A stretch of 64,000 bases of DNA from positions 30,939,178 through 31,003,177 of the forward strand of contig NC_057728.1 in assembly GCF_004010195.1 (NCBI RefSeq). The letters run 5' to 3'. Below are positions 13,498 through 64,000 of the stretch, piece after piece. Made by a program: the position numbers and the translations under genes. The notes beneath the pieces were generated by a model. That model was not told the origin of the DNA. It saw only the letters and a program-made list of their open reading frames with translations, and did not search any database. The DNA comes from Chiloscyllium plagiosum (Eukaryota). Each line of letters begins with the position of its first letter. The stretch's first letter is position 1.

Positions 13498-13669
13498 CTG
13501 CGGACGAATTAGGTAAAAAGTTGAGGCCACGAAATTGAAACAAAACATCAAAATTTAACTACCAGTTTAAAACTGACAGTGAAAAATATACCATCCGTTT
13601 TCTACTGTTAAAATCTTACCAATGCTTCACTCGCTGAAGTAGGAATTTGAATTTATCCAGCATCACTTA

Positions 13670-25082: not shown

Positions 25083-25127
25083 GTACAAAGTTGGTACTCA
25101 TGTAGTTCACTGTCAGTGTGATGTCTG

Positions 25128-25253
25128 AAATACAAATCAAAATTGCTGGAAATACTCAGCAAGTCTGATAGTGTGCTGTCAGATGCCAGATCCACTGAGT
25201 TGTTTTTAGCAATTTCTGTTTGTGTTTCAGATTTGCAGCGTCTGCAGTTCTTT
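25128..25253. mobile_element. Short palindromic Penelope-derived non-autonomous repeat
   Basis: Inverted arms AAATTGCTGGAAATACTCAG / CTGAGTTGTTTTTAGCAATTT plus the tail TCAGATTTGCAGCGTCTGCAG; same family as 38760-38938. Confidence 0.6.
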
Positions 25254-42358: not shown

Positions 42359-43936
42359 GCATCAAGGCCACATTTCACCAAATGTGACAACACGAGCCCT
42401 ATCAAGGCTGGAGTTGATGGGAATCAATGGGGAAAACACTCCACTGATTGGTGTCATACTTGGCACAAAGGAAATTGTTGTGGTTGTTGAAGTTCAATCA
42501 CCTTAATTCCAGGACACCTCCACTGGAATTGTCAGGGTAGTGTCTTAGGTCCAACCATCTTTGGCTGCTTCATCAATGACACCCCATCCCCAATCAAAAG
42601 GTCAGAATAGGGTGGAGGGAGTGTTCTCTGATGACTGCACAATGTTCAGCACCATATGTAACTCCTCAGATATTGAAGTAATTCATATCCAAATGCAGCA
42701 TGACATGAAAAATATCCAGGTTTATGCTGAGAAGTGGCACGTAATATTCATGACACAGAGGTGTCAGGTAAAAAAACCACCGTCAGCAAGAGAGAATCTA
42801 ACCATTGCTCTTTGGCAGTCAATGATATTGCCATTCTATCAATGTACGGGGCTTACCATTGATCAGATATTGAACTGGACCAACCACATAAATACTGTGG
42901 CTACAAGATCTGCTTAGAGACCAGGAATCCTGCAGCAATTTGCTCATCTCCCAATACCTGTCCACCATCTAAAAGGCTCAAGGCAAGAGGGTGATGGAAT
43001 AATTTCCCCTTGCCTGCATGAGCAGCTCCAATAACATTTAAGAAACTTGGCACCATCCAAACCCCAGCAGCTTGCTTCATTGGTACAGCACCAACAAACA
43101 TTCACTCCCTCCCCCACTGATACTTGTGGCAGTATCGAGTATCAATTCCAAGATGCAGTGCAAAAATTCATCAAGGCTCCTTAGTCAACACCTTCCAAAC
43201 CATAACCATTACTATCTAGAAGAACAAGGACAACAGATTTATTGGGGAACAACACCATCTGTAAAATCCCCTCCAAGTCACTCACCATCATGACTTAGAA
43301 ATACATCTCTGTTCCTTCACTGTCACTGGCTCAAAATCCTGAAATTCCCTCCCTAACTGCATATGGTCTACCTGCAGCACATGGACTGCAGTGGTTCAAG
43401 AATGTAGCTCACCAACACTTTTTCAAGGGCAACTAGTAATAGGCAAAAATGCTAGTTTAACTAGTGATGTCGTCATCCTTTGAATGAATGAGAATAAATC
43501 AAGGAATTAAAAATCACTTTTAAGTCTACATCTGATCTAATGTAATGTTTAATTCTCATGTCCATGCATACCTGACTGCTAATGATTTAATAATATGCCA
43601 TCTCTGTGACACCTTATCATAACGTGAAGAATTACATTATGGATCAGCACACCTGAACAGTAAACTGCTGAGCTGCAATTTGGATACTTTGATAGGTAAC
43701 ATGAATATCAGGATGTGTCTCCATAACACTGATCTCATTCAATTGCCATTCTAGTCTGCTGTGATAGTGGCCGACTTTGAACAATTATACTTAGCATGCA
43801 TTTTTCAATATTTTGGTTTTATTATTGAGAAGGTACTTCCCAACTTTGACAGTGTTCTGTTATTGGTTTTGTGATGCTATAGATGTTTAAAATGTTAGCC
43901 TCATTTTAAATTAATTAAAAACCCTTATAATTTCAG

Positions 43937-44382
43937 ATAGAAATATGAACATTTTACGGTACTGCCCTACCTCAGATGCTTGGACTGTCCTAGAATCCTG
44001 TGAACTTCATATTCGTAAACAACAAATGGTGTCTGTGGAAGATACAATTTACCTTGTTGGTGGCTGCATCCATGAGAAAGGTGGAAGTAGGAAGGGAAGT
44101 CATACTGAAGATATGCTTACAATTCAGTCCTACAATGTGAACACTAGGGAATGGCTCCACCTCAAGGAAAACACATCGAAATCTGGATTAAATTTGACTT
44201 GTACATTGCACAATGATGGGATCTACATTATAAGTAGAGATATTGCACCAACAACCAGCCTTGAACATCGTGTATTCCTCAAGTACAATCTATTTTCAGA
44301 TATGTGGGAAGCATTCCGACGTTTTCCAGCATTTGGACAAAATACTTTACTTTGCTCATTGTATTTCCCTAACATAATTTAA
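43937..44382 (+). CDS. KLHL42: KLHL42 exon 3 (C-terminal kelch repeats)
   Basis: Acceptor TAATTTCAG; (D)RNMNILRYCPTSDAW...HIRKQQMVSVEDTIYLVGG...NTSKSGLNLTCTLHNDGIYI...LEHRVFLKYNLFSD.WEAFRRFPAFGQN; stop TAA at 44380-44382. CDS total 1401 nt. Confidence 0.95.
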
Positions 44383-44618
44383 CAGTAATTGTTTTGTGAT
44401 GAAATGGAGTTGGTGTAAATGCAGCAAGATCCTAAAATGAAGAGGAATGGTAGATGTGGGCCAATTTAATGGAAGCAAACTGCTCCACCTTAAACGACTC
44501 AGAGTTGATCATTATTCCTAGGCAATTAGTTGTGAACTGAATCTTCACAGTAATAATACAACAGCAGGTATCTCCTACTTAACTTCAAAATTGTAATTGG
44601 GGAACACAAGCTAAAACA

Positions 44619-44859
44619 AATAAATTCCTTCTGATTAATAATACAACTGAATTACTTTTCTTAAATGTTAAAGAACAAAGACAAGATTTTAAAAACACAG
44701 TTATATGGCAGTGATTGGTGTCAATCACTTGAGAAGGGGCCTTGTTATTAAATGACTGTTGATGGCAAAGTTACATTCCAGTGAAGTATGATGTTGAGCC
44801 TAGAAGTGACTCATAATGCATGATGTGTCTTCAGTGCAGAATACTTATAACCTAATAAA
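44619..44859 (+). terminator. Candidate KLHL42 polyadenylation signals
   Basis: AATAAA at 44619-44624 and 44854-44859 in an AT-rich, repeat-free 3' UTR. Actual usage is unknown. Confidence 0.3.
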
Positions 44860-46878
44860 AGCTTAATTTTACTCCACTAAAGAATCTTTCATTGCTCCAA
44901 ACAATAACAATTTTGTTCATATAGACATTTCATCAGCATGACACAAAATGCACTGCAGCAATCTGGTTTATCAAGGTTTGCTGTTTTACAGATGAATGTG
45001 TACTTTAAAATGGGACTGTTTCTGTGTTTTTAAAAATGAATCAATTTCAAAATCTTGATGTCAACACTTTAAAGTATTTAGAATACAGGTTACATGTTTA
45101 ATTTATTTTTGTTAATCATTTGTGTCAAGAGTGAAGAGGAGTGTTGGAGCTGGTCTGATTCTTGTTCTGACAGTGTAAAGGTGCTCAATTAACTCTAAAT
45201 TTTAGACGATAAATATATGAATTCTCCTCGCATTTATGTTTTCCACTTGATTGCCATTGAAACAAGCTCTGATATTACAAAATGAACTTATATTTAGAAA
45301 TCTCTAATATATTAAAAATGTTGCTGATGTCCTGTATTTGTCACACACTTGTGTCAACTTCAGTGATAAATTTCTGTGTCTACAGTTGTATTAGAAATTG
45401 CTTGTGGACTTATTACATTGAAGTTACAACCTTCTGAGATCACTGCAGTTTGTATCTATCAGCTCCTTAATTTGTTGAGGATGAAAATGCCATACCTCCA
45501 GCCAAATCTGCTTCTCAGCTGCATATTTGTTATTCGACCACAAATAATGTAAAAATCAAAGAGAAAGTGACAGTGAAGTTATTAGTGATGATTCTTTGTA
45601 TCTTTTGTTTGCTTTTGACAGGACACTTGTTAATTATTCACTTGGGAGCATTTGTTAATTTTTCACATGTCCCCATAAAAATCATTTCCATAATACTCCA
45701 ATGTTTCCTAATATATCTTTACAACCAAAAAATTACAATGATTCCAATGTTCAGATTTTGCTCTAGCAGTGCACTGACCAGTGTATGCTACTTTAGGTTT
45801 CTAAATATTTGGGAATGACAAGTTGCTGAAAATGGTAGCTGATAATGTTGTTCTGAGGGAAAACTGGGCTTAACTGAGTAAACAGCCAAGCTCCGCTTAT
45901 TTCTTTAATCAATCAGACCGAAGGACAGGGAAGGAAGTGTACATTAAAGGAAGTGAATTTAATGTCATATCAAGTGCAGAAAAAAAATGAGAAATATTAG
46001 ATTGAGACAGATCAACACAAAAGAGAAAAATTGAAAAAAAAGGACTTGATTTAAAATTCTACATTTTTATAATCTCCAATAACAATTCACACCTGAAGGG
46101 ATAATCATTTTCAGTTCTTCAGAAGTTGGCTGTTATTAACATTTCTTCAAGGTCTGCCCAAATGAATGTTCTTGATGATTGTTCACTCAATCACAGCTAA
46201 GTGGCTTCGTTCTTTTACTATTGGTGAGGCATAGCTGCAGGGCCTGAGTCTATTTGAGCTGGAATGGTGATTGAACCCTACATTGTTGTCATTAATATAA
46301 TCCACATGCTGCATGTCTATTAACCATCGTCCTTTATTAACACTTCGCACCTAATTAAAAGTGTTCTTATATTTGAAGTAGCAAGAGTTAATTTTCTGTA
46401 GGAAATTTAGTTCATTTCTACCATCTAAGTAGAGCAACTTCATGATATTGATTATATAGGAACGGTAAGGCAGTTAGAAGGATGGCATGTTTGTAAATTC
46501 TGACAGGTACTTTTGGATGCTGACATTTACACCTAACATCTGTCCCCCACCTGAAATCAAATTACTTTTCAAATTGTTCTAATTTTATTCTACATTTATT
46601 CTGATCATTCATGATTACTATTGTAATAGGAACAGGTGTAGGCAATTAAACCCCTCAAATTTGTCCTGCCATTCAGATAGCTCATGCTTGATCTGTATTT
46701 CACTTCCATCCAACTACCTTCGTGCCTAAGCTGTTATGCCCTATTCTAGCAAAAATCTACAGATCTCTGGATTTAAAATTTGTAATTAGGCCAACATTTA
46801 CAACTTTATGTGGGTGGGATTACAACATTTCGATCACAAGTTGTGTGAACAAGTGTTTCTTAATTCCCTTCCTGTATG

Positions 46879-47000
46879 CTGATTAAGGGTTTATGCCTGA
46901 AACGTCGATTCTCCTGCTCCTCGGATGCTGCCTGACCTGCTGTGCTTTTCCAGCACCACACACTTGACTCTGATCTCCAGCATCTGCAGCACTCACTTTC
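46879..47000 (+). mobile_element. Penelope-derived short element with a 15-bp flanking direct repeat
   Basis: TTCCCTTCCTGTATG at 46864-46878 and 47001-47015; same family as 37286-37496. Confidence 0.82.
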
Positions 47001-47091
47001 TTCCCTTCCTGTATGGCCTGGCTGTGAGTTAGGATTATACATTCATATCCTAGACATCCCCACCAATGGAAAATGTTTTCTTTTTTTAATC

Positions 47092-47375
47092 TATTCACAG
47101 CATGTGAGCATCACTAGCTTAGCCAGCATTCAGTGCCCATCCCTAATTGCCCAGTGGGCAGTTAAGAGTCAGCCACGTTACTATAGGTCTGAGTAACAGG
47201 TAAAGATGGCAGTTTTCCTTCCCTAAAGGATGTTAGTGAACCAGGTGGGTTTTTTCAACATCTGACAATGGTATCATGGACACCATTTGAGGCTTAATTC
47301 CAGATTTTTATTGAATTCATTTTCCACCATCTGTTGTGGCAGGATGGAAACCCAGTCCCCCAGAACATTACCTGA
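47092..47375 (-). mobile_element. tRNA-derived SINE (family of 49828-50176) within old minus-strand CR1 debris (46620-48400)
   Basis: The reverse complement matches 49880-50170 (GCCCATCCCTAATTGCCC, CCTAAAGGATGTTAGTGAACC, CCCCAGAACATTA). Confidence 0.85.
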
Positions 47376-47829
47376 TCTTTAAAAAAAACTATATCATCTT
47401 TTAACTATAAGACAGAAAAATAAACCTTACTTATTTAATCTCTCCTTAGAATTTAATCCTCTACTGAATCTGCTGAACACCTCCAAAGGCCAAAATATCC
47501 TTTCTAAATTGCACTGCCTAGCATTGTATTCCAGATTTGATCCAATCAGTGTTTTGTATAGCTGTGGTTTGGCAACCTCTTTGCTTTAATTTAGATCTCT
47601 AGTTATAAATTTTAACATTCCATAAGCCTTTTGATAGGTTTTTTTTGTTAATGCAATATATTATTAACTGTAAGCATGAACTCCTAAATCTCTTTGTTTC
47701 TCATTTTTTGCCATTAAAATCTAAAATGGATTATCTGTTTTGAATCCTATCTGCTACAGTTTGTCCACTTTATCAAGTAATACTTATTATTCATTTTATG
47801 CACCCATCTAGTAAATCACCATAGGTCCT

Positions 47830-48012
47830 GAGGTCTGCTCTCAGAGAGACACACTGGAGGGAAGTTTAACTTGAGGGTCACCATGCCTCAGGTGAGGGGC
47901 AAGGTTGAGACCTTCATGATGACATTAACCCATACAGGAATGTGAACCAGTGTTGTTGGCATCACTCTGCATTGCCAACCAGCCATCCAGCAAACTGAGT
48001 TAACTGATTCCC
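47830..48012 (-). mobile_element. tRNA-derived SINE of a third family (related copy at 62176-62350)
   Basis: Minus head TCAGTTAACTCAGTT...GGTTCACATTCC; shared body GTTTAACTTGAGGGTCACCATGCCTCAGGTGAGGGGC. Confidence 0.65.
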
Positions 48013-49827
48013 AACTACACACACCCATGTACACACCTAACTGTATCACCATTCTTTGGATCATTGACAAAGTTGAATATATTGCTGTTAATTTTTTCAG
48101 TCATTAATAAATGAAATGCATTTATGAGGTTCTGGCACAGATCCTTGTGTGATGTCAGTAGTCACTCAATTTCAAATTGAATGCATAGCTGTTATGCTAC
48201 TCTCTGTCTTCTGTTATCTAACCAATCTCCCACCCAGAACAAAAGTCTACAATTCCACGAGCTTTAATTTTACAGCCTATTACACAAAAATGTATTGAAT
48301 GCGTTTGGATGTCCATGCAAATTATATCAATAACTAGCAACATTGTTTATTCACTAATTAAATCAGTTTAATTAGACATTATCTACCCTTTCATATATTA
48401 CATGTAAACAACAGCATAGCGATTAAATTACAGGATTGATAATTCAACGGTCTTGATTAATACTTTGGAGACACAACTTTCTTTTTTATAACAACTGAGG
48501 GATTTCCCTTTTTATGTAACTATAAAGACTTTAGTGTTCACCTTGATATCATTCACATATTTCTTCTATCATTTGAATCTTAGTTGACTTGGTCTTATAA
48601 TATTAATGATTACATTGCCAGCAATATGAAACTTCTAAGCTAAACTAAAAAGTTTAAAAATTGATTGTTGCTCAACATGTTGAAAACAACTTATGAATAT
48701 TTTATTATTCCCAACATCTATATACAGGTACACATAAACACAATAAAAAATAAACAAAATTGCTGCTCTTCAGAAATTCAGACTGATACATTTAGAAATC
48801 AAGAATGCTTGCAAGTAATTGATTCTTCTTTTCCTGCAACACTTAAATTCTATAAAATTACAGGAATAATCTGAATAAAGTTGACTTTTTTGTATATTTG
48901 TGTAAAAAATGAAAACGACTGCCCAAATAAAGAACTAATAATAATTTACTACCTCTCATGGTGATGAAAATGAGTTTGCTACTTCCATCCTGGCAATTAG
49001 GGTCCATTTATTTTCTGCCAGACCTGTAGCTAAATTCAGGAAAGCACCTGTGATCATTTTCTATTCCATTTATTTGTTCTAATCTGGTTTCTTTTAGCAG
49101 TGGCATTTTTTGGAACGGTATTATTTAATTATTTAATAATTTGACTATTGGCACATTTGATCATTGAAGATGGATGTGAATGATATTAAAATAATCCCTG
49201 AATAATATTTAAACTCCTATTATGTATGTGTGATATTATTAATAGATACAACCTAATTCATTACTGTGAAGATTGAGAGTTTTGCTAATGTTCATGATTC
49301 ACTGTTAGCTTCATCTCACAGTTTGTGATTTGATTAAATTATAATCTTGTGACTCTCTGGCAGGTATTTCTCTTCTTACATAGAGGAAGGCAAGTCACAT
49401 TGAGGATAGACACACTACCGAATAAGCTGTAATGAATGAATGAAATACAGTTGTCATTAGCATTCAACAAAATAAATAAAATTTAGAAACTTAAGTATTT
49501 CTCCTAAGTAAACATCCATGCACCTTGGTACCAAATTAAAGTACAATAACTTTAACAGGCAATGTGAGCACAATGAATCTAAATAAATTATATTATAATT
49601 GGAATAGACAGTTAGTCATTGTTAGTTGGATATTGCAATGAGATTAAAATATTATATTGAACATTTGAATAAAAATTGTGTTGTTCTGTATTACAAAGCA
49701 AAATTGTTGTCCTATCTGGTGGATGAAATTTATTTACTGTGGAACAGAAATAGAGCCATTCAAATTATGACAACTTGTTAATTTGATGGTCAAACTATAT
49801 GAAGTGAGCCATATGATGAATGGATTA

Positions 49828-50176
49828 GGGAGGTAATGTCCTAGTTGTATTATCACTGGACTGTTAATCCAGAGACCCAGATAATGTTCTGGGGACCTGG
49901 GTTTGAATCCCGCCATGGCAAGTGGTCAATTTGAATTGAATGAATACCTGGAATTAAGAATCTAATGGTGACCATAAATCCATTGCTGATTGTCAGAAAA
50001 GCCCATTAGTTCACCAATGTCCTTTGGGGACTGAAACTGCCAACCTTACCTGATCTGGCCTACATGTGACTCCTGATCCACAGCAATGTAGTTGCCTCTT
50101 AACTGCCCTCTGAGAAATTAGGAATGGGCAATAAATGCTGCCCTGCCAGCAATGCCTCATCCCATGAATGAATAAA
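49828..50176 (+). mobile_element. Complete tRNA-derived SINE sharing both head and tail with the LINE at 38500-43498
   Basis: A box TGTCCTAGTTG; B box GGTTTGAATCC (49900-49910); tail GGGCAATAAATGCTG...CATCCCATGAATGAATAAA. Confidence 0.88.
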
Positions 50177-50966
50177 GGGGAATTATGCAGTTAATAAAGC
50201 AGTAATTTTGCATTTCCCAAGAGCTGCTGGATTTTGTTGTTTCTTCTCCATTTTGAATTGCAAGTTGTTAATCCCTGTATAGGGCTGAGGCAGCCCTGTT
50301 CCTGAAACTTATTCCTGTTCTTTTAATTTATACACTATTTGCAGGGATGGGGCTAGAGCAGTTTAGGTGTTTAGTGTCACCTCTGGCCCCGTTTCTGTTT
50401 TTTTTTAAGATTTTCCATTGTGTTACAATCATTTTCTTGAACTAATCAGGCAAAGCATCAAGTTTACGAAGCTATAGAGGTGCAAATCATTTTACTAGCA
50501 AATTACTTGATTGTTCGATTTACTTTTGAAATTTTAAACAATGTTTATTTTAAAATGTGGGCTGAATAATGTTTTATTTAATTGAACAGAACATATGTTA
50601 CCATTTAAGATGATTATATGATTTCCTCATGTTACAAAGCACATTTCCTTTACATTTATTTTGAATAAATTCGCAGAAAATGTAATTAATCTGTCTATTG
50701 TAGCCTCCCATCAGCTCCCTATTTTCTTACATCCAAAGTACAAATGTTCAGAATCTACCTTTTTTCAGTTAAGTTGCAACATGGTGTTTGCAGATATGGA
50801 AATGAATTTAGCAAAATATATTTTAAACCGCGAATCCCATTTGGCCGATCTGGCAATTACATTTTCTGTGCCACTCGATACTGAATCTTTTTTTAAAAAA
50901 ACCCGTATCTACCCACTTCCCAATTAGATTGCAGAACATTATTGGAATTTATGTAATCTTCGGTTC

Positions 50967-51968
50967 CTAAAAGGAATGGTCTGGTGCTTCCCCGGTAAGC
51001 TTTAACTGGGGACAACTTGTACAGACTGGTGCGTTTTGAGGCGCACACTTTCTCCGGACTGAGAAGATGTCCTGTTCGAGACCTCTCGTGCTGCTCCTGG
51101 GGTGCACTTTATGTGATTTAAAAGACAGAGTCCAGCACCATGTGCGGTATCTCTTTGCTACCAATACGTAAATAACTGAATTGACACACGGATAGAAATA
51201 ATTAAGGATTGTGCAACCAAAAAAGAGCATTTCCCAGTTCTGTCCGCCATGGCATGCACCTAAATACAGGCAGAGCTCTAAGACGTAGCTGGGCAGCCAA
51301 CACGCAGAGAAGGAGCCCGTGGCAAACAGGATCATGATAGACGCCCTCCTTGTGTTTCTGGAACTAACCAGGGACATCATGGGACTCTTCAGAAGGAAGA
51401 TTGCAAGACGAATGTAGTTATAGGCGATCACCAGCATGGGTACCAAGTAAAACACAACGAACTGAGCCAGAATGGTCTTGTATTTGTGCTGGTATAAACC
51501 CGAGACGCAGAACGTGGTATTGTGAGTTCCTGTCCCTGTTGTGGCGTTGATCCGCAGCGGTATGGCGACAGCGAGGCTGAAGACCCAAACAAAGACCAAC
51601 AGGACCATGCTGAGGGTCATTGCAGGGGGTCTGTGAGGTTTCATGATGAACCAGGCACGGGTGATGGAGACAGCGCAAAGGGAGTAAGCGCTGGCAGCCC
51701 CCGAGAACGCCACGAGGAACTGAAGTATCTTGCAGAAGAACCTTCCAAAGGGCCACCTATACTGCAGGGCAGCCACGATCAGGAAGGGGTCCAGCAAAAG
51801 AGCAATGAAATCTGCCACGGCCATGCTCACCAACAGGATGTCCAAGCGGTTCTTCCGGAATGAGACATACTTGGTAAAGATGTAGAACACCAATGTGTGG
51901 GCGAAAACCCCAACCAACACAATGCCAGAGCAAATACTGGCGAAGATGATGCCATATGTAAAAGTCAT
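50967..51968 (-). CDS. Class A (rhodopsin-like) orphan GPCR, galanin/somatostatin/allatostatin-receptor-like; main exon
   Basis: Intact 333-codon ORF with 7 hydrophobic helices; TM2 MAVAD, ECL1 WPFG..FCK, TM3 AVSITRA, TM4 VWVFSL...P, TM5 FYLVP..Y, TM6 FSACWLP, TM7 CVNSVIY, helix 8 KRYR. Confidence 0.9.
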   Translation of the reverse strand: MTFTYGIIFASICSGIVLVGVFAHTLVFYIFTKYVSFRKNRLDILLVSMAVADFIALLLDPFLIVAALQYRWPFGRFFCKILQFLVAFSGAASAYSLCAVSITRAWFIMKPHRPPAMTLSMVLLVFVWVFSLAVAIPLRINATTGTGTHNTTFCVSGLYQHKYKTILAQFVVFYLVPMLVIAYNYIRLAIFLLKSPMMSLVSSRNTRRASIMILFATGSFSACWLPSYVLELCLYLGACHGGQNWEMLFFGCTILNYFYPCVNSVIYVLVAKRYRTWCWTLSFKSHKVHPRSSTRGLEQDIFSVRRKCAPQNAPVCTSCPQLKLTGEAPDHSF

Positions 51969-52083
51969 GATTAGAAATTCAAAGCATCCTGGGTCTTCTT
52001 TCGAAAGGCAGCAACAAGTGATCTTGGTCGACAGATATGGAGGCCGTTCTCTTCAGGGTGGGTAGCTTTTGGACATCTCAAAC

Positions 52084-52102
52084 CAGATGTTCCGTTTGCC
52101 AT
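52084..52102 (-). CDS. Putative 19-nt first coding exon of the GPCR (MANGTS)
   Basis: ATGGCAAACGGAACATCTG|GTTTGA. Splicing to the AG at 51999-51998 gives in-frame MANGTSEDPGCFEFLIMTFTY with an N-glycosylation sequon. Confidence 0.45.
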
Positions 52103-52959
52103 AGGTTCGCTCTGAAGAATGCAGTGCATGTTAATCACTGCCGGGAGAAACAACATCCACGCACATTCATTGAAGCGGCACTGTTTCACCGCCGCATTAA
52201 AAAGTAATGAATTACAAGGTCTTCCTGCTTTTAGATGACGTTATACATAGCTCAATCGATTCGATATCGACAAGTTCGATCCTCGTACAAACAAATCAAA
52301 CGTGGCGCATTCAGGTAACCCAGTTCAGAAAACAAACCTGCTGTGAATAATTAACTTTTTTCGATTTAGTTTTTGGAATACTTGGGCTTTTCTTCCCCCC
52401 TGATAACACCCAGCCCCAGCTCACAGCAATACCTTCTCGACACTATCAGAATACTTCTCTGCAATTCAGCACAATGATACAATGGCCGAGGGGTTAGGGG
52501 AGGCGGGCACAGAGAAAAGATTTTGGACAAGAGATGATTTGGGGGGGGGGGGGGGGATGGAATTTGAGGAAGAACGTTTTTATGCAGTGTGTTGCAATGA
52601 CCCGGAGCCGATTGACTATGAGAGTTGTAGAAGTGAGAAGAGTTAATGAATTCAAATGAAATTGGGTGGACACTAGAAGGAAGTAAACTTATTGGGTTGG
52701 GGATTGAACGGAATGGGACTGATTGGATTGTTCCAAAGTGCCGGCATGAACTTGATGGGGCAAAGAGCTTCCTTCTGTGCACTAATTGCTCTGTGACTCC
52801 ACTTGATCAACTAAAAAAAATCTTGCAATTAAATATTAGGAAGGCTAAAGGCATTGTCCTTGGTTTCTCTTTAAAAATCTATTCCTTAGTCACTGACTTC
52901 ATGGCTGACAACTATCTGAAGTGAAACCAAAGCATCTGTTATATTTAATCTCAAGATAA

Positions 52960-53410
52960 GTTTCTGGCCACATACATGCACCATACTAATTTCACTTATT
53001 TCCACCAACATAACATTTCCTGACTGCGCTCCCTTCTCTGCTTATTGATTGCTTGAACTCTAATTCATTTCTCTCCAGACTTGACAATCTCAAGGGGCTT
53101 CCACTTTTTACCCTCCTTAAACTTGAGATCATCCAAAGTTTTGCTGTCAGTGACCAAGCTCACCAAATTCTATTCACTCACCAACCATATCCCCATTGAC
53201 CAACACTAATGGCTGGTAAAACAACTCTTCAATTTTAACTTTCCTACCCCTGCTTTAAAAATCTGTTGGTGATCCAGCCTATTCCAATCTCTGTAACTCT
53301 TCCAGCTGCACGACTCTCCCCAAGAGATCACTACTCCTACAATCCTGACTTCTTCAGCATCCCATTTTTAACCATCCATTGATGCTTATGCCTTCAACTC
53401 TGGCAAAACT
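52960..53410 (+). mobile_element. Old L2-like LINE fragment
   Basis: Degenerate LIH..SRLD, L.IIQ...A and H.P....HWL..Q...FK pattern of the L2 ORF2 C-terminus. Confidence 0.55.
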
Positions 53411-53544
53411 GCTAATCATGTAATCTAAATGTCGTTATGTTGTTCAGTATCTTATAGATTGGAACATTTTACTATAATGTTTAAATATGCTATTAAAACA
53501 AGATGTTGTCATTATTGCAGTAAATCTTGATGATATCATCAGTA

Positions 53545-54215
53545 GAGTCATAGAGATGTACAGCATGGAAACAGACCCTTCGGTCCAACCCGTCCATGCT
53601 GCCCAGATACAATCTGGTCCCACCTGCCAGCACCCAGCCCATATCCCTCCAAACCCTTCCTATTCATATACCCATCCAAATGCCTCTTAAATGTTGCAAT
53701 TGTACCAGCATCCACCACTTCTTCTGGCAGCTCATTCAATACACATACCACCCTCTGCGTGAAAAAATTGCCCCGTAGGTCTCTTTTATATCTTTCCCCT
53801 CTCACCCTAAACCTATGCCCTCTAGTTCTGGACTCCCTGACCCCAGGGAAAAGACTTTGCCTATTTGCCCTATCCATGCCCCTCATAATATTGTAAACCT
53901 CTATAAGGTTACCCCTCAGCCTCCGATGCTCCAGGGAAAACAGCCCCAGCCTGTTCCGTCTCTCCCTATAGTCAAATCCTCCAACCTTGGCAACATCTTT
54001 TCTGAACCCTTTCAAGTTTCACAACATCTTTCCGATAGGAAGGAGACCAGAATTGCATGCAATATTCCAACAGTGGCCTAACCAATGTCGCCCATTGGCC
54101 CATCTGGTCAAGATCCTGTTGTAATCTGAGGTAACCTCCAATTTTTGTGTCATCTGCAAACTTACTAACTGTATCGTTTATACTCGCATCCAAATTTATG
54201 TAAATGACAAAAAGT
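53545..54215 (-). mobile_element. CR1/HER1 3' fragment with internal deletions
   Basis: [21 protein letters not shown]|TLVRPLLEYCMQFWSP; RLGLFSLEHRRLRG; tail CTCTATGACTCT. Confidence 0.92.
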
Positions 54216-54264
54216 TGTAAATCATTGAGAAAAGTACTAAGCATAACTATTATTTGTAAGTAAC

Positions 54265-56030
54265 AACTTGCCTTTAGATACTGCCGATAAATCCCAAGAT
54301 GCTTCACAAGGGCATTGTTAGACAAAAATAATGACCTGAAGGAGACAGGAGGAGTGATGATTAAAATCTTGGTAAAACAGGTAGGTTTTAAGGTGACTGT
54401 TAAAGAAGAGAGGGTTTGAAAAGCAAAAGAGATTAGTGAATTTAGGGCTTAGATACCTTAAGGCATAGATGCAAGGTGTGAGGTGAAGTGAGAGGAGGTA
54501 TACAAAGTTCAGAATTGAAAGATTGCAGAGTTCTTGGAAGGTTGCAAAGAAGAAGAAATTATCCAGATAAGGAGGATTGAAATCAAAAGTGGATTTGAAC
54601 ACAATGAGAATGTTAAACTGCCTCGTATGTGCAGGAAGGCAAAAGTCAGTATTAGTCAGAAATCGCAAGGTATAAAGTATAAGATGGAGTTGGTGCAGAT
54701 TAGGATACAAAGAGCTTTGAGAAGATGGATGAGCTAGAATATATGTCGGTTGGAAGACTGGCCAGGAAAGCATTGATTTGAAGGAGCCAGTGTTGGACTG
54801 GGGTGGACAAAATTAAAAGTCACACAACACCAGGTTATAGTCCAACAGGTTTATTTGGAGGCACTAACTTTCGAAGTACTGCTTCTTTATCAGGTGGTTG
54901 TGCAGCAGAATCATTAAACACAGACTTTATAGCAACAGAATTGCAGTGACATGGAATGTAATATTAAACAAATTTAGCTTAAATCTTTCATCTTTTAGAA
55001 TACCCATGTTAGTTTCAGTTCCTTCATATGTAAATCCCAGAACCTTTTTAAAGTTACATTCTTAAGACAGCTGTAACAATAGGCACCATCTCAGCTCAGA
55101 TTGAAGGTGTGAGGTTAAAATCTGTCTGTGTCCCAATGTTAGTTAGGTTGATTCTACTTCTAAAGTGATATTTACAGAATGGTACATGGATTTATGCAGT
55201 TTTTAAGCAAAATAAAATGTAATTCTGCAAATATAAATTCATCCCACAAACTTATATGTGTGTGCATGCTGGGGAGACCGAGTGAGTGTGTGCATGTGGT
55301 GTGAGTCTGTGGGAGTGTGCGTGTGCGTGTATGCGTGCGCTTGTGTGCACGTGTGTGTATAGTGCAGCGGGGTCACCTGTAGTGTGACATAAACCCAAGA
55401 TCCAGGTTGTGGCCATCCCCATGGGTATGGAATTGGATATCAGCCTCTGCTGGGCCACTTTGTGCTGTTGCCTGTCCTGAAATCTGCCTTGGAGGATGGT
55501 CACCCGAAAATCTGAAGCTGAATGTCCTGGACCGCTGAAGTGTTCCCTGATTGGGAAGGAACACTCCTGCCTGGTGATCATTGCTTGGTGATATTGGTAT
55601 AGTTGTAAATGGATGCAATGATGACATGGGTAAATGTTTAGGGTAGGATCCTAAACAGATGGACATAAAAAAATGGAGCCATGCAATGTTATAGAAGTAC
55701 AAGTATGAGGTCCTTGCAAAGGAGAATTTGGCACTTATTTTTTAAACAAATAAGATACTGCGATGGTAACTTTAACCAGAGAGGAGATGGTTTGAGTGAT
55801 TAAGGTGCAGAGTTTGTAGTAGGACATGAACCTAACAGTTCTGACCTTCCCAACATTTTAAAAAAGCTATTGTGACTCATCTAGGACTGGATTTTGGGTT
55901 TATGTACATAAACAGAGGCTCATAAACTGAGACAGTAGGCTACAGGATTGAGAACACTGAAAAGAGAGAAAGCTGGATATTATCAGTTTACAAGTGAAAC
56001 CTGGTGGCACATGGGGTAGAATTGTTTGCT
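54265..56030 (-). mobile_element. Old L2-like LINE remnant split by a Penelope insertion
   Basis: Purine-rich plus strand typical of reversed L2; minus-strand HLKTYLFYQDF (LKT.LF..AF L2 C-terminus) at ~54360-54400. Confidence 0.55.
54790..55585 (-). mobile_element. Penelope-like element 3' part (GIY-YIG C-terminus, (CA)n-like tract, pLTR)
   Basis: PIREHFSGPGHSASDFRVTILQG...KVAQQRLI...HTHGDG.NLDLGF; pLTR with AATAAA and a hammerhead-like core at 54862-54897. Confidence 0.85.
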
Positions 56031-57109
56031 CACAGCAATTGTTCAATAGCAACTCTGTTTAATTATTAACACTTAATCACCTGGTTGGTTCAATTACCTC
56101 ATGCTTTCTTTTGAGCCTCAACATAATAGTTTATTTTAGAATTAAAACTCCTAAGATTTATTTCTATGTGTATATATAAATATTCTCAATGTTTGTGATA
56201 GTTTCATACAACAGATAGTTGACAGTATTTCTCATATTAATATGTTTCTGTTTCTGGATTTCTAATAAGATCATATCTCTTTAAGATCAATTTGTACTTC
56301 AGCCAGCTTTTATTAATTTTCTGTTAATACCTGAAGATTGCCTTCCTGTTTGTTTTCCAGAAAATTGAGTTAATGGCTTTTATCGGAGGGTGACTATGAT
56401 TGTATTTTACAGGGCTGTGTTAAGTTTTAGAATGTAAACACTATCTTATCATCATATTTTAAACAATCCATGTTGATGATATTTTATGAGATGAGGTGCA
56501 CACCTGTTCAATATCATGTTCTGTTTGATCTTCCAAGCATTTTCTATCTGAGCAGGTTTTAGGAGAATATTATCAGAAAATACTGTAGTTGAACTGTGCA
56601 TATCTTTGACAGAATTATATCAAATGCATGGCTCTGTCATGCATACTATATAATAGCAGAGGAAAACAGAGAAACAAGCCTGAGCTCTGAGCATTCTATT
56701 TATTCTTCATTTTATATCCAAGAACAGAGTCTGTCAAAGCAATACAGTGTTTATGTAAAAGTCTGCTTTTAAAGTCAGAATAAAATATTCCATTAATAAA
56801 AGAAAGGCAAGGACTGAAAATAATGAGACATTATTTAAGGAATTGTAGCAATTAAGCTCTGTACAATTTAACATACAAATCCTATTTTACTTTGGTATTA
56901 TCTATTCCAGTTCTAAAGGTCCAGCTGCAATTCAGATTTATTTTGTGTGTGATATTGTGAATTATTTTATTCATTTTAATAATCAGAACTTCAAAAACCT
57001 AAGTGCATTAATAGTCCAGTGAAGTTTGGAAGTGGAAACAGACAGGTGTAATGAATATTTTTATGGTTGACAATAAGGGTTCTTGAAAGGTTCGCTTAAT
57101 TCATTTCAG

Positions 57110-58710
57110 ACTAATGGAAAAGGATGACATGGATATAGACATCAGGGTAGGGACTGTGAAATACTGGCAGAAATTAACTTACAGCAAAGAGATACTAGAG
57201 GAATTAGCAGGCTTAAAAGTGGGTAAATCCACAGAGTGTTAAGGGAGGCAAGGGAGGAGATATCAGGGACTCTGGCTGTAATTTTTAAATACTCTCTTTT
57301 CACAGGTGAGGTGCCAAAGGACTGGAGCACCACTATCATTGTCCCAGTATGAAAAAGGGAATGAAGTTATCGACCAAGAAATTGAAAAAAAATCATTTTA
57401 ACCTCAGTGGCAGGGAAATTATTTGGAAGAATTCTGAAGGGTAGGATATTTCTGCACCTTTGGAGATGCAGATTAATCAGAGATAGTCAGGATAAATTTG
57501 TTAAGTTCATGTTTGACAAATTTGATCGAATTGCTTGAGGTGGTAACTAGGAGTGTTGATGAGAAATGTGCATTTGATATGGTCTGCATGAACTTTAGCA
57601 ATGCTTTTGATAAGGTCACTCATAGCAGACTGGTCAAGTAGTTAAGAGCCCATGGGATTCAAGGCAGAGTGACACATAGGATCAAAAATTGGCTGAGATA
57701 CAGGCAGTGAAAGGTGATGGTATGGAAATGTTTCTGTGACTGCACATCTGTTTCCAGTTGGATTCCACAGAGCTCAGTGCTGGGGCCCTCACTGTTTGTG
57801 GTATACGTTAGTGATTTGGTCTTACATGTAGGAGGTATGAGCAAGATGTTTGCAGATGTCATGAAAATTGCTGGGTGTTAAATAGTAAGGAGAATAGCTG
57901 TAAGCAGCAGGAAGATATGAAGGACATAGCAATGCCGAATTAAATTCAACCCAAAAATTATGTGAGGTCATGCACTTGGATAGGGCTAACAAGACAAGGG
58001 ATTACTCAATGAATGGCAGGACCTTGGCAAGTACTGAACAACAGAGAGGCTTTGGTGTTCATATCCACAGATTCCAGAAGCTAGTACGGCAGGTAGGGTT
58101 GATTAGGAAGCATATGGGATCCTTGCCTTTATTAGCTGAGACATAGAATACAACAGCAGGGGGTTAATGCTGCAATTGTATAAAATGCTGGTTAGACTAC
58201 ACCTGAAATACTGCATGCAGTTCAGATAAACAGATCATAACAAAAATGTGGCTGCACTAGATGTGTGCAAAAATGATTTTCCAGGGTGCTGACTGGGCTG
58301 GACAATCTGATCTATAAGGAAAGATTGGGTAGGTTAGACAGCAAAGGTTGGGAGGGGAGTGGATAGAGATGTATATGATTATGAGGGGCATTGATACGGT
58401 AGATGGGAAGGTATGCTTTCCATTAGTAGAGGGGCCAATAAATAGAGTGCACAGATTTAGATTTCAAGGTAAGATAGGAGGTAGAAAGCTAAGAGGAGAG
58501 TTGAGGAGAAATATTTTCATCACAGTATGGTGAAAGTCTGGAAGGGTGGTTGAGTCAGAAAGTTTCATAATATTTAAGCAGTACAGTAGTTGGATATTTG
58601 CTTGCATTTCCATAGCTTCCAGCATTATAGGCCAAGAACTGGAAAATGAATGTACTAAGATCAGAGCTTTGTTGACTGGTACTGACATGATGGAATGAAT
58701 GGCCCATTAA
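57110..58710 (+). mobile_element. Old CR1 LINE RT-to-3' fragment
   Basis: Degenerate TGEVPKDW, NFSNAFDKV.H, IPQSSVLGP, FADV, CEVMHL, LVRLHLKYCMQF and a CR1 tail. Confidence 0.85.
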
Positions 58711-59439
58711 GGGAGTTTATCCCTTATCTGGCTATGTCACATATAATGATTTTGCCAGATTTACTGTTTTTTTAATTGAAGGAGTCATAATCCCGCTTGC
58801 CTACATTTCTTTTCACTGTAAAATTATTTCCCATATTTTATAACATTATTTTATACTGCACTCAAAATAAGCTCTACACTCCCATTTAATGATACAGAGA
58901 AGACAGGATCAGACGCCCCACCGGCCACTCAAGGCCGAGGACGATCCACAAGACGGGCGGCTGCCGGAACGGGCAGCCTGCAGCTCCCAGACACGGTCTG
59001 TGCCTCTCAACACTCTCAATCGATCAACAATCGAGTCGGACCAGCTATCTACCTCCCCACTAATTTACCAGGATTCCTAATTTTTAGAGAATAAACGCAG
59101 TCTTTCAGGATGTATTGTGGCACCAAACACATTTTTGTTTGTACTGACTTGGCTGAAACCTCTGAACTGTAAAGCAGAAGCTAGCCATAAAATTGCATGT
59201 GAATATTCTTATACTAACATGTAAATAAACCAGCTAATTTTATGATATTATTGAACAGAACAATTGCCTATGAATGTGTACTGTCCATTCCTCAATATTC
59301 ATATCAATTTTGTTTGCTTCTGACAGGGAAGCCTGAAATATGAAATTATTATATATGAAGCAACATTGCAAAAGTAAGCAGTAAACTGTAATTTGTCACT
59401 ACATGCTAAAAGCTGTTTCTATAAGGATTAAGGCTGTAT

Positions 59440-59600
59440 TCCAGAAATGAGATATTCCATTCTAATAAAGAGTCATATTGGACTTGAAATGTTAACTCTG
59501 CTTTTCACTCCACAAATGCTGTCAGACCTGCTGAGTTTCTCTGGCGCTTTCTGTTTTTAGTGCATAGCACCAGCATCTGCAATACTTTACTTTTATATGA
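59440..59600 (+). mobile_element. Penelope-derived short repeat, decayed
   Basis: GAGTCATATTGGACTTGAAATGTTAACTCTG...TGCTGTCAGACCTGCTGAG...CAGCATCTGCA; same family as 38760. Confidence 0.7.
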
Positions 59601-60489
59601 TTGAGATTTTCATTGTTTTTTAATAATGACAATGGAATTTATAATAGAAAGGTTTATATAGAGGTATGTGACATTGCTCAACAACACACAACTATTATTA
59701 GATATAACCTTAATAAGTTATTGATAATACTGCTATATGTCATATGTTGATTACTTGAGGCCCTGATGGTAAAAATGGTCATCATCAGTGATGCCCTATG
59801 CTCTCAGGAATGTAGCTAGCTGATTAAAATGCTGGCCTCCTCTTGTTATTCTTGCACTTCATTTGGAAAAATGATGAAGTATTGCTCTTGATAATCAAGG
59901 CTGTGGTGAATTGTTTGATGCAGTGGTATGTGCAAAGATGGTATACTGACAATTACCACTAATGATGCTTAAAAATGAATCAATTGCAAAAATTGTTCAA
60001 TGTCATGGTCATAAAGCTATCCCAGTGCTGGATGTCATCTGCAGTTCAAATACAGTTTTGTAAAGGGCATAACCTGAGGACTGCAGCCCTGCTGAAGGGA
60101 TGAAAGCAGAGGATGTTGACTTCCAATTTGCACATTGATCAGTGCCAGGAGCCTGTCTCACCAATACAGCATCTTTTTCTTTGCATGGATAATTCCTCTT
60201 CATCCTAAATCCAGTACCAATAATTGTTGATCTAAATATAATGCCCATGGTCAGCATTATTTTCAGTTCGAGGGTAAACCCTTGGCAGCAATGATGTTGT
60301 TATGGGGAGGTGGATATTAAGCAATCACTGATTTGAAGAAAACCAACAGCAAACAATCAGGTTTGCTCTACTTAAGGTTTACATTATGAGTAACCCAAGG
60401 GTCACGTGACTACGCTCCAAACAGTCACATTTTCTGGCTTAAGTAAGTCAATTATTAAAGCTCCCAAGCCACTCTGCTGCTTTTGAGAA

Positions 60490-60609
60490 TAGATTAGAGT
60501 GGTGCTGGAAAAGCATAGCAGGTCAGGCAGCATCCGAGGAGTGCTTTTCCAGCACCACTCTAATCTAGACTTTGATTTCTAGCATCTGCAGTCCTCATTT
60601 TTGCCTAGT
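60490..60609. mobile_element. Penelope-derived hairpin element with a 26-bp perfect inverted repeat and a 15-bp flanking direct repeat
   Basis: TAGATTAGAGTGGTGCTGGAAAAGCA (60490-60515) / TGCTTTTCCAGCACCACTCTAATCTA (60542-60567); TGCTTTTGAGAATAG at 60478-60492 and 60610-60624. Confidence 0.85.
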
Positions 60610-61294
60610 TGCTTTTGAGAATAGTTTTCATTAAGTCAAAGTTGATTTATATTGATACATTTTAATTTATAAGCTGGGTCATCTTTTAGCATGTTCTTTG
60701 CAATTATTATGGTGCACCAGAGGAATGAGATTGAGGAGTTAAGGAATGGGAACAAACATTTTAATGTTGCTTTTTTCCCTTTTATTTAATTGAGTATAAA
60801 ACCATGTTCCAAATCTATTCCCTCATTTATGTTGGGCCCAATTAAAAGGCAATGTGTGTAGTTAACCTTGGAAGAAACAAATAAGCGAAGCACATCTGTA
60901 AATTATATTTTTAATCTGTTTCTTTTTGTTATTTTGGATATTTAAGTGAAAATTTTAATTAATGTCAGCTTTATAAATGTTTGATTGACCTTAGATCACC
61001 CCAGTCTCAACATATGTTCACAGTCTGCCACACAAATACAACTGTGAAGAATTAATTTGGGAGGGGGGGGGAGCGGGAGGTGGCACTCTCTTCATAAGAA
61101 AAGCACTAAAGTTTTATTTTCTTGATTATAATTGACTATATGATAAACAGATTTAAAACATTTTGGTGTGACACCCCTGCTGAAAATTATTTTGAGTTGT
61201 TTGGTTTGAAAATTAAGAGCATTTTACCACTTTCTGAAGACAGTTCTCCTTTAATAATTTACCATGGAAATCTATAACTTTCTCAGTAATAATA

Positions 61295-62760
61295 TCAGTA
61301 TGAGGAGGCTATTCTGTCCTTTGAATATGTTGCAAAATTCTACAAGGTCATGGCTGATTCTATATCTCTATTTGACTTTTCTACTCAACCTTCATACCCC
61401 TTGAACCCTTTAATACTCAATCTGGTGAGAAAGCAGAGTTAACATCTTGGGTCAATTTAACTCTGCTTTCTCTTCACAGGTGCTGCCAGACCTGCTGAAT
61501 ATTCGCAGCAATTTCTGTTTTTGTTCCTCTCACCTTATGAATAAGTTCAGTGAATTTATCTTAGATATCCTCCAAGATTAGTATATTATTTTTTAGGTAA
61601 GGTGATCAAAATTGTGCACAATTCTTTGGATTTTTCAGACCCTATATAATTGCAGTAAAACTTCTACACTTTTGTACGTTGAACTCTTTCGAATAAAGGC
61701 CAATGTACTATTTGTTTCCCGACTACCTCATAAAATTTGCATGTTAGCTATCTGTTATTCATATACAAGGACATTCATCATTCTGAATACCCATATTTCC
61801 CCAGACACTCACCAATTCAAGCTATTCTGTTACTCTATTTTACCTAACAAAGTAAGTAACTTCACACTCCTTCATGCCATCTTCTGGCACACTTAGCTAG
61901 TCTGTCTCCTTTTGGAGCCTGTTTATATCCATTTCACAGATCACTTTTCCATCTGATGTTGTATAATCAGTAAACTAGGATACACTAACGTTCATATAGT
62001 TTCCTTATCTAAGCCATTGATATACAGAGACTCCTTCTGTTGCAACATGCCAAGTTGAAATTGATCCATTTTCTACTAAGTAACAGATCCACAATCCATG
62101 CCAAGTATTTCACCCACCTAATGAGTCCTATTTTCTACTTGAAAATTCAAATAAACTAAGATAAAGTTGCTATAGGGCTGCTCTCTTATTAGAGGAGATG
62201 GCAGGTGGCAGTTTAACCTAAGGCTCATCAAGCCTCAAGTGAGGGGGCAGATATTGAGAAGGAGAGTCCTTCATGGTAACCTCAGCTGGTGCAGGAATTC
62301 AGCTCACGCAATTGGCATCACACTATCACAAAACAGACAACTGAGTCAACAGAATGGCTAGCAGTATTTCAAATCAGTAATCATATTATGATTTTTTTAT
62401 GATTCCTGGTATCATGATCTTGAGAATCAATTCTCACATTTACCCCACTAATGTCCTCAGGTTATCTGGGCAATTGTTTTCTCTCTATTTCCTTTCTTGA
62501 ACAGCAAAGTTATGTTTCTGGCTTCCAATCTGTGGGAACGATTCCAAAATGTAAGGAGTTCCAGAAAATCAAAACTAATGGCATCCACTAACTTTGTAAT
62601 GAGCTTTTAAAATTTAAAGGATATAAGTCATTAAGTCAAATTGATTTGGTAGGTTTTGTTTTCATTCCATTAATTTCGCCTGTGCCATTTCTTTTAAGTT
62701 TCTTATTGTCTTATTTTTTGTTTCTGCACTGTTTGAGGAATATTTTAGTATGTTGTTCAC
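61295..62760 (-). mobile_element. Old CR1 debris with an embedded Penelope-derived repeat (61425-61525) and SINE (62176-62350)
   Basis: Degenerate CR1 3' UTR at 61295 and RT-like reversed segments; GCTGCCAGACCTGCTGAATATT arm; SINE body shared with 47830. Confidence 0.6.
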
Positions 62761-64000
62761 CATGCAGACACTTCTGCCGTATTTGTTCAATATCAAACCA
62801 TTTACTTATGTCTGTTATCTTTGCTTGTAACGGAGGCACGTTGACTTTAACTAATCTCCAGCATTTTATATACCTGTCAAAGCTTTTATGGCATATTAAG
62901 TTACTTGCTTGTTTACTAGTGTGTTTGCATTACTCCAGACCCTTAAAAGTAAACCTTTACATAAGTCACGTGACCTTGTTTTAGGAGGATAGAGAAGATA
63001 TTGTAACCCGATTTAAAACTATTGATGTGGAATTGAATTAAGAAGTGTTGCTCCATAGACCAATTGGGGCCGCTGTGGTACAATTGCAAAGGTATTGGAG
63101 TCAGTCTTTCCAGTCAGACTTCATCTGAAGTACAGGTTTTCACCATTAATAGCAAAGTTGATTTTGGCAATTACTTAGAAGTGGATGTCTGACACAGAAA
63201 AAATTACTCATTCAGAGTAAAGATGTTGAGATTCACTTCTTGAATGAGAAACGTACAACAATAAACACGTGTGCAAAAACATATAATACGAATCAGGTTC
63301 GACTTCAAAATAAGATTTGTTTTATATATTTAGTCTCAGTACCAATCAAAGAATAATAATGTTGACTGTCTCGCAGTACGTGTCGGTATTTTTTGCAGTA
63401 TTTACTTCAGTAGGTACTTAATTATTACTTATAAAGTACTATTTAGATCTAAACAAAGACACAAGCTGGTTTCGCCTCCTAAATACGAAGCTTTCCAGTA
63501 CCAAAAAGAGCGGGACATCGGTGTGCTGTGTAGAAGTCTAGAAAAAATGGAATTAACAAGTAAAATGAAATACCTAGATTAGATCATTAAATTCACTTAT
63601 TGGACAGTCGGATATGTTTCCCTCACAGCTGACCTCTCTTTGATAACGCGGCAACAACAACCAAAAAAAAAGTTTAATTTATGCAATCGTTTCAAGTCTG
63701 AAATTGAACTCTGGTCGTTTTAATTTGGAGATTACTTTCTGCTTTTTCTCAATGTACCTCGGATCCGTGCTACCCACTGGCACACGGAAGCCGGCGGTTT
63801 TCATCAGTTCATTTATTCAATTCTTGCTTCATAAACTAACATGTAGATAGCAAAACCTACTGATCGATAGATTGATGTGGTTAGTCATGTGCCTGTGTTA
63901 TTTCACTGAAATCTACTTTATGACTGTCAGACTTTATATTTAAATGTAAGTTTCCCTTCAGATACGATCTCACAACCATGGATCAAACTAAAATCAGAAG

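Follow-up and report, generated by a model that had tools for sequence, protein, structure and literature searches.

The 64,000-nucleotide stretch of the genome of the shark Chiloscyllium plagiosum that was analysed here (hereafter the window) carries the gene of an orphan, G protein-coupled receptor of class A, in which some of the most conserved class A positions are changed. The question raised by this locus is whether the gene represents a known receptor, a decaying copy of one, or a receptor in its own right. The gene belongs to an intact, conserved, single-copy orphan subfamily of the gnathostomes, which is apparently unnamed and is not orthologous to any characterised receptor. The overall reading that we consider rather probable, judged from sequence comparison, is that of a distinct PTHLH-linked subfamily, which would have arisen as an offshoot of the GALR2/3 lineage, would be coupled to G proteins and show elevated basal activity, and would respond to a ligand other than galanin or spexin.

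The receptor gene and its gene model

The receptor is encoded by a single-exon open reading frame (ORF) of 333 codons on the minus strand (50967..51968, ATG to TAG), which is free of internal stops, as stated in the preliminary description, and which scores 115.9 bits against Pfam 7tm_1 (cut-off 30.5). Its product is 100% identical to residues 13-345 of RefSeq entry XP_043564816.1, annotated as 'galanin receptor 2b' of C. plagiosum. The AF2 model of the receptor (mean pLDDT 76) exhibits seven helices (H2-34 to H243-279) and an unstructured tail (residues 277-333, pLDDT below 50). TM1 begins approximately 2-5 residues past the Met, so that the extracellular N-terminus is almost nil. In a fold comparison, the peptide receptors on which the model superposes share 21-27% identity with it, and GALR1 and GALR2 give the lowest RMSD among the top matches listed (2.4-2.7 Å; TM-score 0.72-0.74).

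The shark genome holds one copy of the gene (752 bits, the runner-up scoring 77 bits, with 121 of 294 candidates scored). The ORF had been described as CpG-rich, which is true to a modest degree: its observed/expected CpG ratio is 0.59 versus 0.28 for the window, a value matched by 6 of the 63 1-kb tiles, and that of a coding exon at 12845-13558 is higher still (0.77).

The RefSeq model extends the ORF by an in-frame DPGCFEFLI leader which follows a putative AG splice acceptor at 51999-51998 (together 51969..51999, minus strand). By sequence match, the candidate end of its 5' exon (ATG GTT G, followed by a GTGAGT donor) lies at 53182..53188 on the minus strand, this being the sole such minus-strand match within 52011-64000. 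The first AATAAA 3' of the stop codon (50655..50660, minus strand) represents a candidate polyadenylation signal. Downstream of a TATAA at 52245, nine ATGs precede the start of the ORF (51969-52260, minus strand). None of these is in frame within the stop-to-stop leader; an unspliced receptor leader would translate poorly. A search of Rfam over 44400-64000 returned no matches.

Transcript evidence

Contigs of run X1, which are unstranded and whose RNA origin is a guess, cover 28 of the 30 bins of 48500-52500 and one of the 30 bins of the PTHLH stretch. This cover is ambiguous, since a plus-strand ATTAAA at 52197, i.e., a long KLHL42 3' UTR, explains it equally well as the minus-strand TATAA at 52245. 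One X1 contig (1,246 letters, depth 42) matches 51011-50695 alone, where it is ten times deeper than the contigs over the receptor ORF; its boundary falls in single-copy DNA at a minus-strand AG (51007-51006), 13 codons before the stop. The remaining 929 letters lie elsewhere, outside 48500-52500, and none were seen on L011:2200-10000. This contig has the appearance of a spliced transcript whose point of entry is 13 codons ahead of the receptor stop, possibly a non-coding one that shares the receptor 3' end. Raw reads X8 gave matches on a repeat only.

Genomic neighbourhood

The receptor gene is convergent with a BTB-Kelch gene, the last coding exon of which occupies 43915..44382 on the plus strand and the first coding exon of which falls within 24250-25128. 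The receptor had been placed downstream of KLHL42; it lies on the strand opposite to this BTB-Kelch gene, whose last coding exon ends at 44382 and which is presumably KLHL42, the name given in the preliminary description. The main exon of a PTH-family gene lies 16.4 kb upstream of the receptor on the same strand, just beyond the window, and the receptor gene sits just 3' of PTHLH in both shark and teleosts.

Shark PTHLH (minus strand) has exons at L011:350-674 and L011:4144-4658, i.e., a separate AU-rich terminal exon besides the main exon, which carries a donor 28 bases past its stop codon. In run X7 the upstream PTHLH intron (L011:4658-5362) is spliced. Nesting of the receptor in the last intron of PTHLH, an idea that came from the contig entering the 3' end of the ORF, was ruled out by the likely PTHLH terminal exon (acceptor L011:674, AU-rich, AATAAA), which is located ~12.7 kb upstream of the receptor ATG. 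No X1 contig lies on the PTHLH exon, a gap in cover that proves nothing alone.

Eight teleost GenBank models (P0027, P0083, P0153, P0154, P0332, P0334, P0336 and P0372) join a PTHrP exon to the receptor ORF. These fusions are probably annotation joins, from which the gene order is seen to be the same in catfish and cyprinids; a precomputed PTH Pfam domain is present in P0083 only, and two RefSeq models of the same species (P0155 and P0337) are unfused, in contrast to the GenBank models. In the catfish models P0153, P0154, P0083, P0332, P0334 and P0336 the PTHrP exon terminates in a basic RKKR/RKRR end and is followed by the receptor; P0153 includes a signal peptide and would make a topologically coherent, cleavable precursor. 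The PTHrP-receptor junction of the GenBank models recurs in five genera. For the shark, an in-frame fusion of this kind was rejected, the PTHLH coding exon having no phase-1 donor that matches the acceptor at 51998.

Elsewhere in the window, the CpG-rich coding exon at 12845-13558 (minus strand) ends in a transmembrane segment plus a short tail and has no Pfam match; from human gene order it is presumably MANSC4-like. A run of N (assembly gap) at ~8585-9050 lies inside retroelement-like sequence, and LINE reverse-transcriptase fragments are numerous across the window.

Range and conservation of the subfamily

Two word-seeded protein searches returned 81 and 110 matches, the second having scored the best 7,992 candidates. 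Orthologues with 45-89% identity to the shark receptor are found in sharks, bichir, sturgeons, bowfin, gar, many teleosts, coelacanth, turtles, crocodilians and lizards. The family set was defined as entries scoring >400 bits on the family profile, with fragments below this value left out, and is teleost-heavy; its 239 full-length entries derive from sharks (12 entries from 10 species), ray-finned fishes, coelacanth, turtles, crocodilians and lizards. An unseeded profile search against 1.84 billion sequences, each representing a 50%-identity cluster, gave the family clusters 192-501 bits; they were accompanied by one 113-aa fragment, with unrelated receptors coming next at ≤156 bits.

The protein searches returned no named family entry from birds, amphibians, mammals, snakes, lungfish, skates or chimaera; they covered protein entries only, and a bird copy of >50% identity could hide inside a 50%-identity cluster. 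As a control, a true GALR2 used in the same search retrieved many birds, amphibians and mammals among the 120 matches listed out of 420. The proposal in the preliminary description of an ancestral gnathostome receptor lost in mammals is thus upheld as to age and as to the lack of mammalian entries, but is too narrow, as the absence also covers birds and amphibians. The absence from birds, frogs and mammals represents an apparent loss in each.

The family constitutes a 100/100 clade, the stem of which measures 2.2-2.5 changes per site; its gene tree (38 rows) follows the species tree, with unnamed sauropsid entries all placed inside lizards or crocodilians. The coelacanth has one family gene, the zebrafish member is XP_009295985, and the gar entry is XP_006633720. 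Divergence across the family spans ~450 My; identity between shark and gar is 57%, and 58 positions are at least 98% conserved across the 239 entries.

Ancient and lineage-specific motif changes

The pivotal residues D2.50, C3.25/C45.50, R3.50, W4.50, P5.50, P6.50 and Y7.53 are each present in 236-239 of the 239 entries. All motifs previously listed for the shark protein are found in its translation, both the retained ones (D53, WPFG..C79, W128, C154 and CWLP at 223-226) and the altered ones (A23-H24, T103-R104-A105, NSVIY at 263-267, and LCLYLGAC at 232-239). Of the three motifs that had been regarded as rewired, the DRY motif is changed family-wide, while the other two are intact in most members. 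For example, the T-R-A that replaces DRY in the shark (51654..51662, minus strand) appears as [A/T/V]RA throughout the family, with no acid at 3.49 (A 101, T 99, V 37, G 1), R3.50 in all 239 entries and A3.51 in 236. Position 1.50, usually Asn, is shark-specific in being H24 (51897..51899, minus strand): Asn is kept in 217 entries, His occurs in 12 (every shark entry), Tyr in two (coelacanth), and eight have a gap. Similarly, at 7.50 within N-S-V-I-Y, Pro is kept in 233 entries and replaced by Ser in six, all of carpet sharks. On this alignment, only the DRY loss is ancient, and H1.50 and S7.50 are late shark changes.

The segment containing N-S-V-I-Y also includes Y259-P260 at 7.45-7.46 (51168..51194, minus strand), which is H-P in bony vertebrates; 7.45 is His in 225 entries or Tyr in 12, P7.46 is present in 238 and Y7.53 in 239. 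In TM2, D53 (2.50) and P61 (51786..51812, minus strand) give a P2.58 pattern in the alignment, and the proline is found at 2.58 in 15 of 15 family rows. The CWLP toggle motif is followed by the pocket residues Y228 (6.52) and E231 (6.55) (51276..51302, minus strand); W6.48 is present in 238 entries, P6.50 in 239, P5.50 in 238, F6.44 in 239 and Thr at 6.30 in 239. The next segment (51231..51272, minus strand) holds C233 (6.57), C239 and E246 (7.32), the latter position being acidic in the family. The extra cysteine pair that had been noted in ECL3 is in part inherited, since C6.57 is common to GALR2/3 (also 107 of 120 GALR2 entries); its second member, C239, is new in sharks (11 of 12 shark entries, none of 227 others).

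Of the 239 entries, 24 being truncated models, 173 have a Met no further than 10 residues from TM1. A median of 4 Ser/Thr is found in the short tail, and ICL2 is 3-5 residues shorter than that of GALR2. The near-absent N-terminus, P2.58, H/Y7.45-P7.46 and the pocket residues Q3.29, Y6.52, E6.55 and E/D7.32 are family-wide features that were absent from the preliminary description. Tyr 5.58 is replaced by Ser in 30 of 239 entries, as seen in cyprinids including zebrafish (P0160, P0089 and P0165), and the zebrafish is, given this Ser, perhaps not the most typical model for the family.

Relationship to galanin receptors and origin of the subfamily

The shark genome contains three two-exon GALR2/3-type and two GALR1-type genes, all on other contigs, while the receptor's own contig is without any GALR gene. 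The receptor is 25-28% identical to these galanin receptors, and lacks the intron that the shark GALR2/3 genes carry at the DRY codon. In full-length trees, GALR2/3 form a 100/100 clade that excludes the family. By these sequence comparisons the receptor is not an orthologue of GALR1, 2A, 2B or 3, in agreement with the earlier view of an orphan receptor.

The best solved relatives of the family profile are GALR2 (124 bits), GALR1 (122 bits) and the mu-opioid receptor (120 bits), and the GALR2, GALR3 and GALR1 structures (PDB 7wq4, 7xjk, 7wq3 and 7xjj) combine the best profile match with the lowest RMSD of the top fold matches. A TM5-helix 8 profile gives GALR2/3 a mean of 65.3 bits, with the next group at 49.3 and one full-length GALR1 at 64.0, and a tree of the C-terminal half joins the family to GALR2/3 at 89/89, a value below the star threshold from a bootstrap that had not settled. 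Furthermore, four rare GALR2-type signatures, chosen after seeing the alignment, are common to the family and GALR2: C6.57 (238/239 family, 106/119 GALR2 and 0/142 other entries), a helix-8 S/A-K (233, 108 and 7, respectively), a tail [KR]V[HQ] (218, 95 and 4), and G-x-[FY] in ECL3.

The N-terminal half gives a different picture. GALR2/3 are mid-field in a TM1-TM4 profile, an N-half tree joins the family to the lamprey entry P0295 (85/68, with a long-branch warning), and full-length trees leave the family unplaced and not with GALR2/3. Family rows carry P2.58 and D2.40 where galanin receptors carry P2.59 and Asn; moreover, galanin receptors have DRY, the galanin pocket and a basic triad, whereas the family has [ATV]RA, acidic residues at 6.55 (E) and 7.32 (E/D), and almost no N-terminus. 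In PMC5403833, galanin receptors are listed as P2.59, and the ghrelin and motilin receptors as P2.58 inside the peptide group. Descent from a GALR is weakened by the P2.58 of the family. AU tests rejected none of four placements, i.e., with GALR2/3 (p 0.145), with all GALR-like receptors (p 0.062), with the P2.58 group (p 0.178, the smallest likelihood loss, 1.67 log-likelihood units) and with lamprey P0295 (p 0.064), in trees built without GPR151 or named vertebrate KISS1R sequences. Taken from these sequence data, a fast-diverged offshoot of the GALR2/3 lineage is the somewhat likelier origin, in which, at a similar level of confidence, TM2-TM3 and the pocket would have been rebuilt and the GALR2/3 signatures of the TM5-to-tail half retained.

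A possible though less probable origin is an older lineage, either one that separated before the lamprey split, with P0295 (UniRef S4R7F8) as kin, or one from the P2.58 group of somatostatin, opioid, NPBW, MCH and urotensin receptors; the proposed function would be unchanged. Lamprey P0295 and the sharks have H1.50, D2.40, S2.45, P2.58, a non-acidic 3.49 and Y6.52 in common; among 190 non-family rows, H1.50 is found in 2. P0295 is also the most identical (30.3%) of the ten non-family rows compared. Against kinship, the full-length tree puts P0295 with GALR1 (94/91), its best solved relative is GALR1, and, unlike the family, it keeps Y3.51 and lacks E6.55 and P7.46. As to the P2.58 group, its proline is shared, the MCHR rows also share Y6.52 and D2.40, the placement costs 1.67 log-likelihood units, and the best single-sequence matches are the mu-opioid receptor and SSTR1 (~26%). 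D3.32 is the ligand anchor of P2.58-group receptors; the family is without it (L 211, S 9, Q 8, V 5 of 239), has Ser in place of Asn at 3.35 (alignment A1), lacks DRY, and falls outside the group in full-length trees and in the N-half tree (96/92). P0295 is itself another galanin-receptor-like orphan of divergent sequence, which carries H1.50, P2.58 and NRY; no shark orthologue of it stood out (best score 100.6 bits).

Returning to the GALR2/3 offshoot, the source of the receptor may have been an ancient 5'-truncated retrocopy, given that the gene is intronless, N-terminally bare and on a contig without a GALR gene. Many class A genes are intronless, for which reason retroposition is a candidate origin only. 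A fuller scenario, which we regard as rather unlikely, holds that a 5'-truncated GALR2/3 retrocopy would have landed beside PTHLH before sharks and bony fishes split, that its pocket would have been rebuilt for a new cationic hormone or metabolite, and that the receptor, without an N-terminus, would have become constitutively active and would then have been lost three times (amphibians, mammals and birds). In that case, it would belong to an undescribed vertebrate signalling system, whose ligand would be a signal molecule out of reach of mammal-centred work.

Predicted signalling and ligand

The family would quite probably couple to G proteins, since R3.50 is invariant, as are Y7.53, F6.44 and P6.50, and W6.48 and P5.50 are near-invariant; Y5.58 would contribute likewise. 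Two basic elements, NTRRAS where TM6 begins and helix 8, are also kept and would serve G-protein engagement. R3.50 is known to contact both G-alpha and Y5.58, and a role has been ascribed to D3.49 (PMC3414077, section 6).

It is doubtful that the receptor is instead non-signalling or arrestin-only, e.g., a scavenger, as had been suggested earlier, or a modulatory heterodimer partner. The family-wide loss of DRY, the shortened ICL2 and the extra shark changes at 1.50 and 7.50 are in keeping with such a role. However, the non-signalling receptors C5L2 and DARC have lost the positive charge at 3.50 (PMC3414077), whereas the family retains R3.50, Y7.53 and F6.44 in 239 of 239 entries and P5.50 in 238, and its short tail, with a median of 4 Ser/Thr, also disfavours this alternative.

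Raised basal activity, be it constitutive or hair-trigger, has a close to even chance and would stem from weak inactive-state locks. These locks appear weak because small neutral residues replace the acid at 3.49, which precludes a D3.49-R3.50 salt bridge, because Thr occupies 6.30, and because the sodium site has changed (N7.45 to H/Y, S7.46 to P). Against raised basal activity, a neutralised 3.49 in the thromboxane receptor increased agonist potency with no basal activity (PMC3610872), and His7.45 still coordinates sodium in chemokine receptors (PMC6037435); the single zebrafish H7.45 'SO' sequence in the latter paper may be the zebrafish member of the family.

The binding pocket is polar, with Q3.29 in 239, R139 in 235, Y5.35 in 234, Y6.52 in 239, E6.55 in 235 and E/D7.32 in 237 of 239 entries. 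Because of its invariant acids, this pocket suggests an own, probably cationic ligand. With the residues at 2.61-2.65 and 6.51 being small, it could with even chances accommodate a peptide or amine that is small and cationic, and no N-terminal domain would be needed.

No better placed than the non-signalling alternative is a ligand-free constitutive receptor tuned by protons or metals, which would not be a peptide receptor. The two invariant acids, the missing N-terminal domain and a His cluster of bony-vertebrate members at positions 161, 162, 241 and 7.45 (217, 227, 207 and 225 of 239 entries, respectively) would suit such a receptor; yet three of the four His positions are occupied by Lys, Gly and Tyr in the shark protein of the window, so that the cluster is not universal, and the invariant polar pocket is more simply explained as a ligand site.

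More improbable still is that the receptor binds galanin or spexin after all, as database names say. Galanin is contacted by Q2.61, I2.64, Y2.65, H3.29 and Y7.32 around its Tyr9 and by the triad H6.51/R7.35/H7.39 (PMC8924211), residues which are kept in 118-120 of 120 GALR2 entries (2.64 being I/V). Across the family, Q2.61 is replaced by T/L/I/V, I2.64 by S/T/A, Y2.65 by A/V, H3.29 by Q, H6.51 by G/S, Y7.32 by E/D, R7.35 by Y/H/F and H7.39 by T/N. With its galanin-contact residues replaced, i.e., both the Tyr9 surroundings and the whole triad gone, the receptor is by its pocket not a galanin receptor. The best profile matches are GALR2 and GALR1, and a TM6-ECL3 hydrophobic patch is partly kept (L6.54, V6.58 and an aromatic ECL3 residue in most entries); against these points stand the 25-28% identity to shark GALRs, the five other GALR genes in the genome and the inconsistency of the automatic names. 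A spexin search of the shark genome gave one match on a different contig and was uninformative. Lastly, a decaying retrocopy or pseudogene, to which the intronless structure and three broken-looking teleost or sturgeon entries (P0100, P0101 and P0388/P0389) might point, is virtually ruled out by the 239 full-length entries, the 57% shark-gar identity and the 58 near-invariant sites.

Names and literature

Automatic names given to family members comprise galanin 2a/2b, mu-opioid, nociceptin, NPY6, MCH1 and allatostatin-A receptor, and the ESM Atlas returned generic 7tm_1 clusters only. No paper on this receptor family was found in a literature search whose coverage excluded most subscription journals. 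Among known orphans, we take GPR151 to be GALR-related, intronless and acid-responsive, with a degenerate DRY. Compared by description only, GPR151 differs from the family in being P2.59 (PMC5403833) and in being present in mammals.

Two tentative, unnamed non-human clades, GPR195 and GPR196, have been placed in a CCKR/KISS1R/GALR gene tree (Rinne et al. 2019, PMC6504862). There, GPR195 comprises six sauropsids, five of which are apparently birds (the supplement numbering is shifted), together with two copies from the coelacanth, and GPR196 comprises lamprey and duplicated fishes, without reptiles. The family, in contrast, has one coelacanth gene and reptiles, with no bird seen; on this comparison, made by taxon range only, the ranges do not fit, although the family may overlap with either clade. 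GPR166, described in PMC2651185 as intact in rat and dog and a pseudogene in human, was considered as a name by description only; the family matches comprise no mammal entry. NMOGPR, listed in the GPR139/142 clade, could likewise be neither matched nor mapped to the family.

Significance

In the survey mentioned above (PMC6504862), a further 28 orphan clades of non-human receptors are counted as unstudied. The present subfamily is a testable orphan receptor that is apparently unnamed and is represented in zebrafish, and its invariant pocket would point to a ligand of its own. It also represents a natural DRY experiment, in which a subfamily has run on [A/T/V]RA and P7.46 for the age of the jawed vertebrates, and in which the carpet sharks then dropped P7.50. 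Furthermore, dozens of fish and reptile RefSeq entries that are named 'galanin receptor 2a/2b', 'mu-type opioid receptor' or 'allatostatin-A receptor' are this gene, and such misnaming can mislead expression studies.
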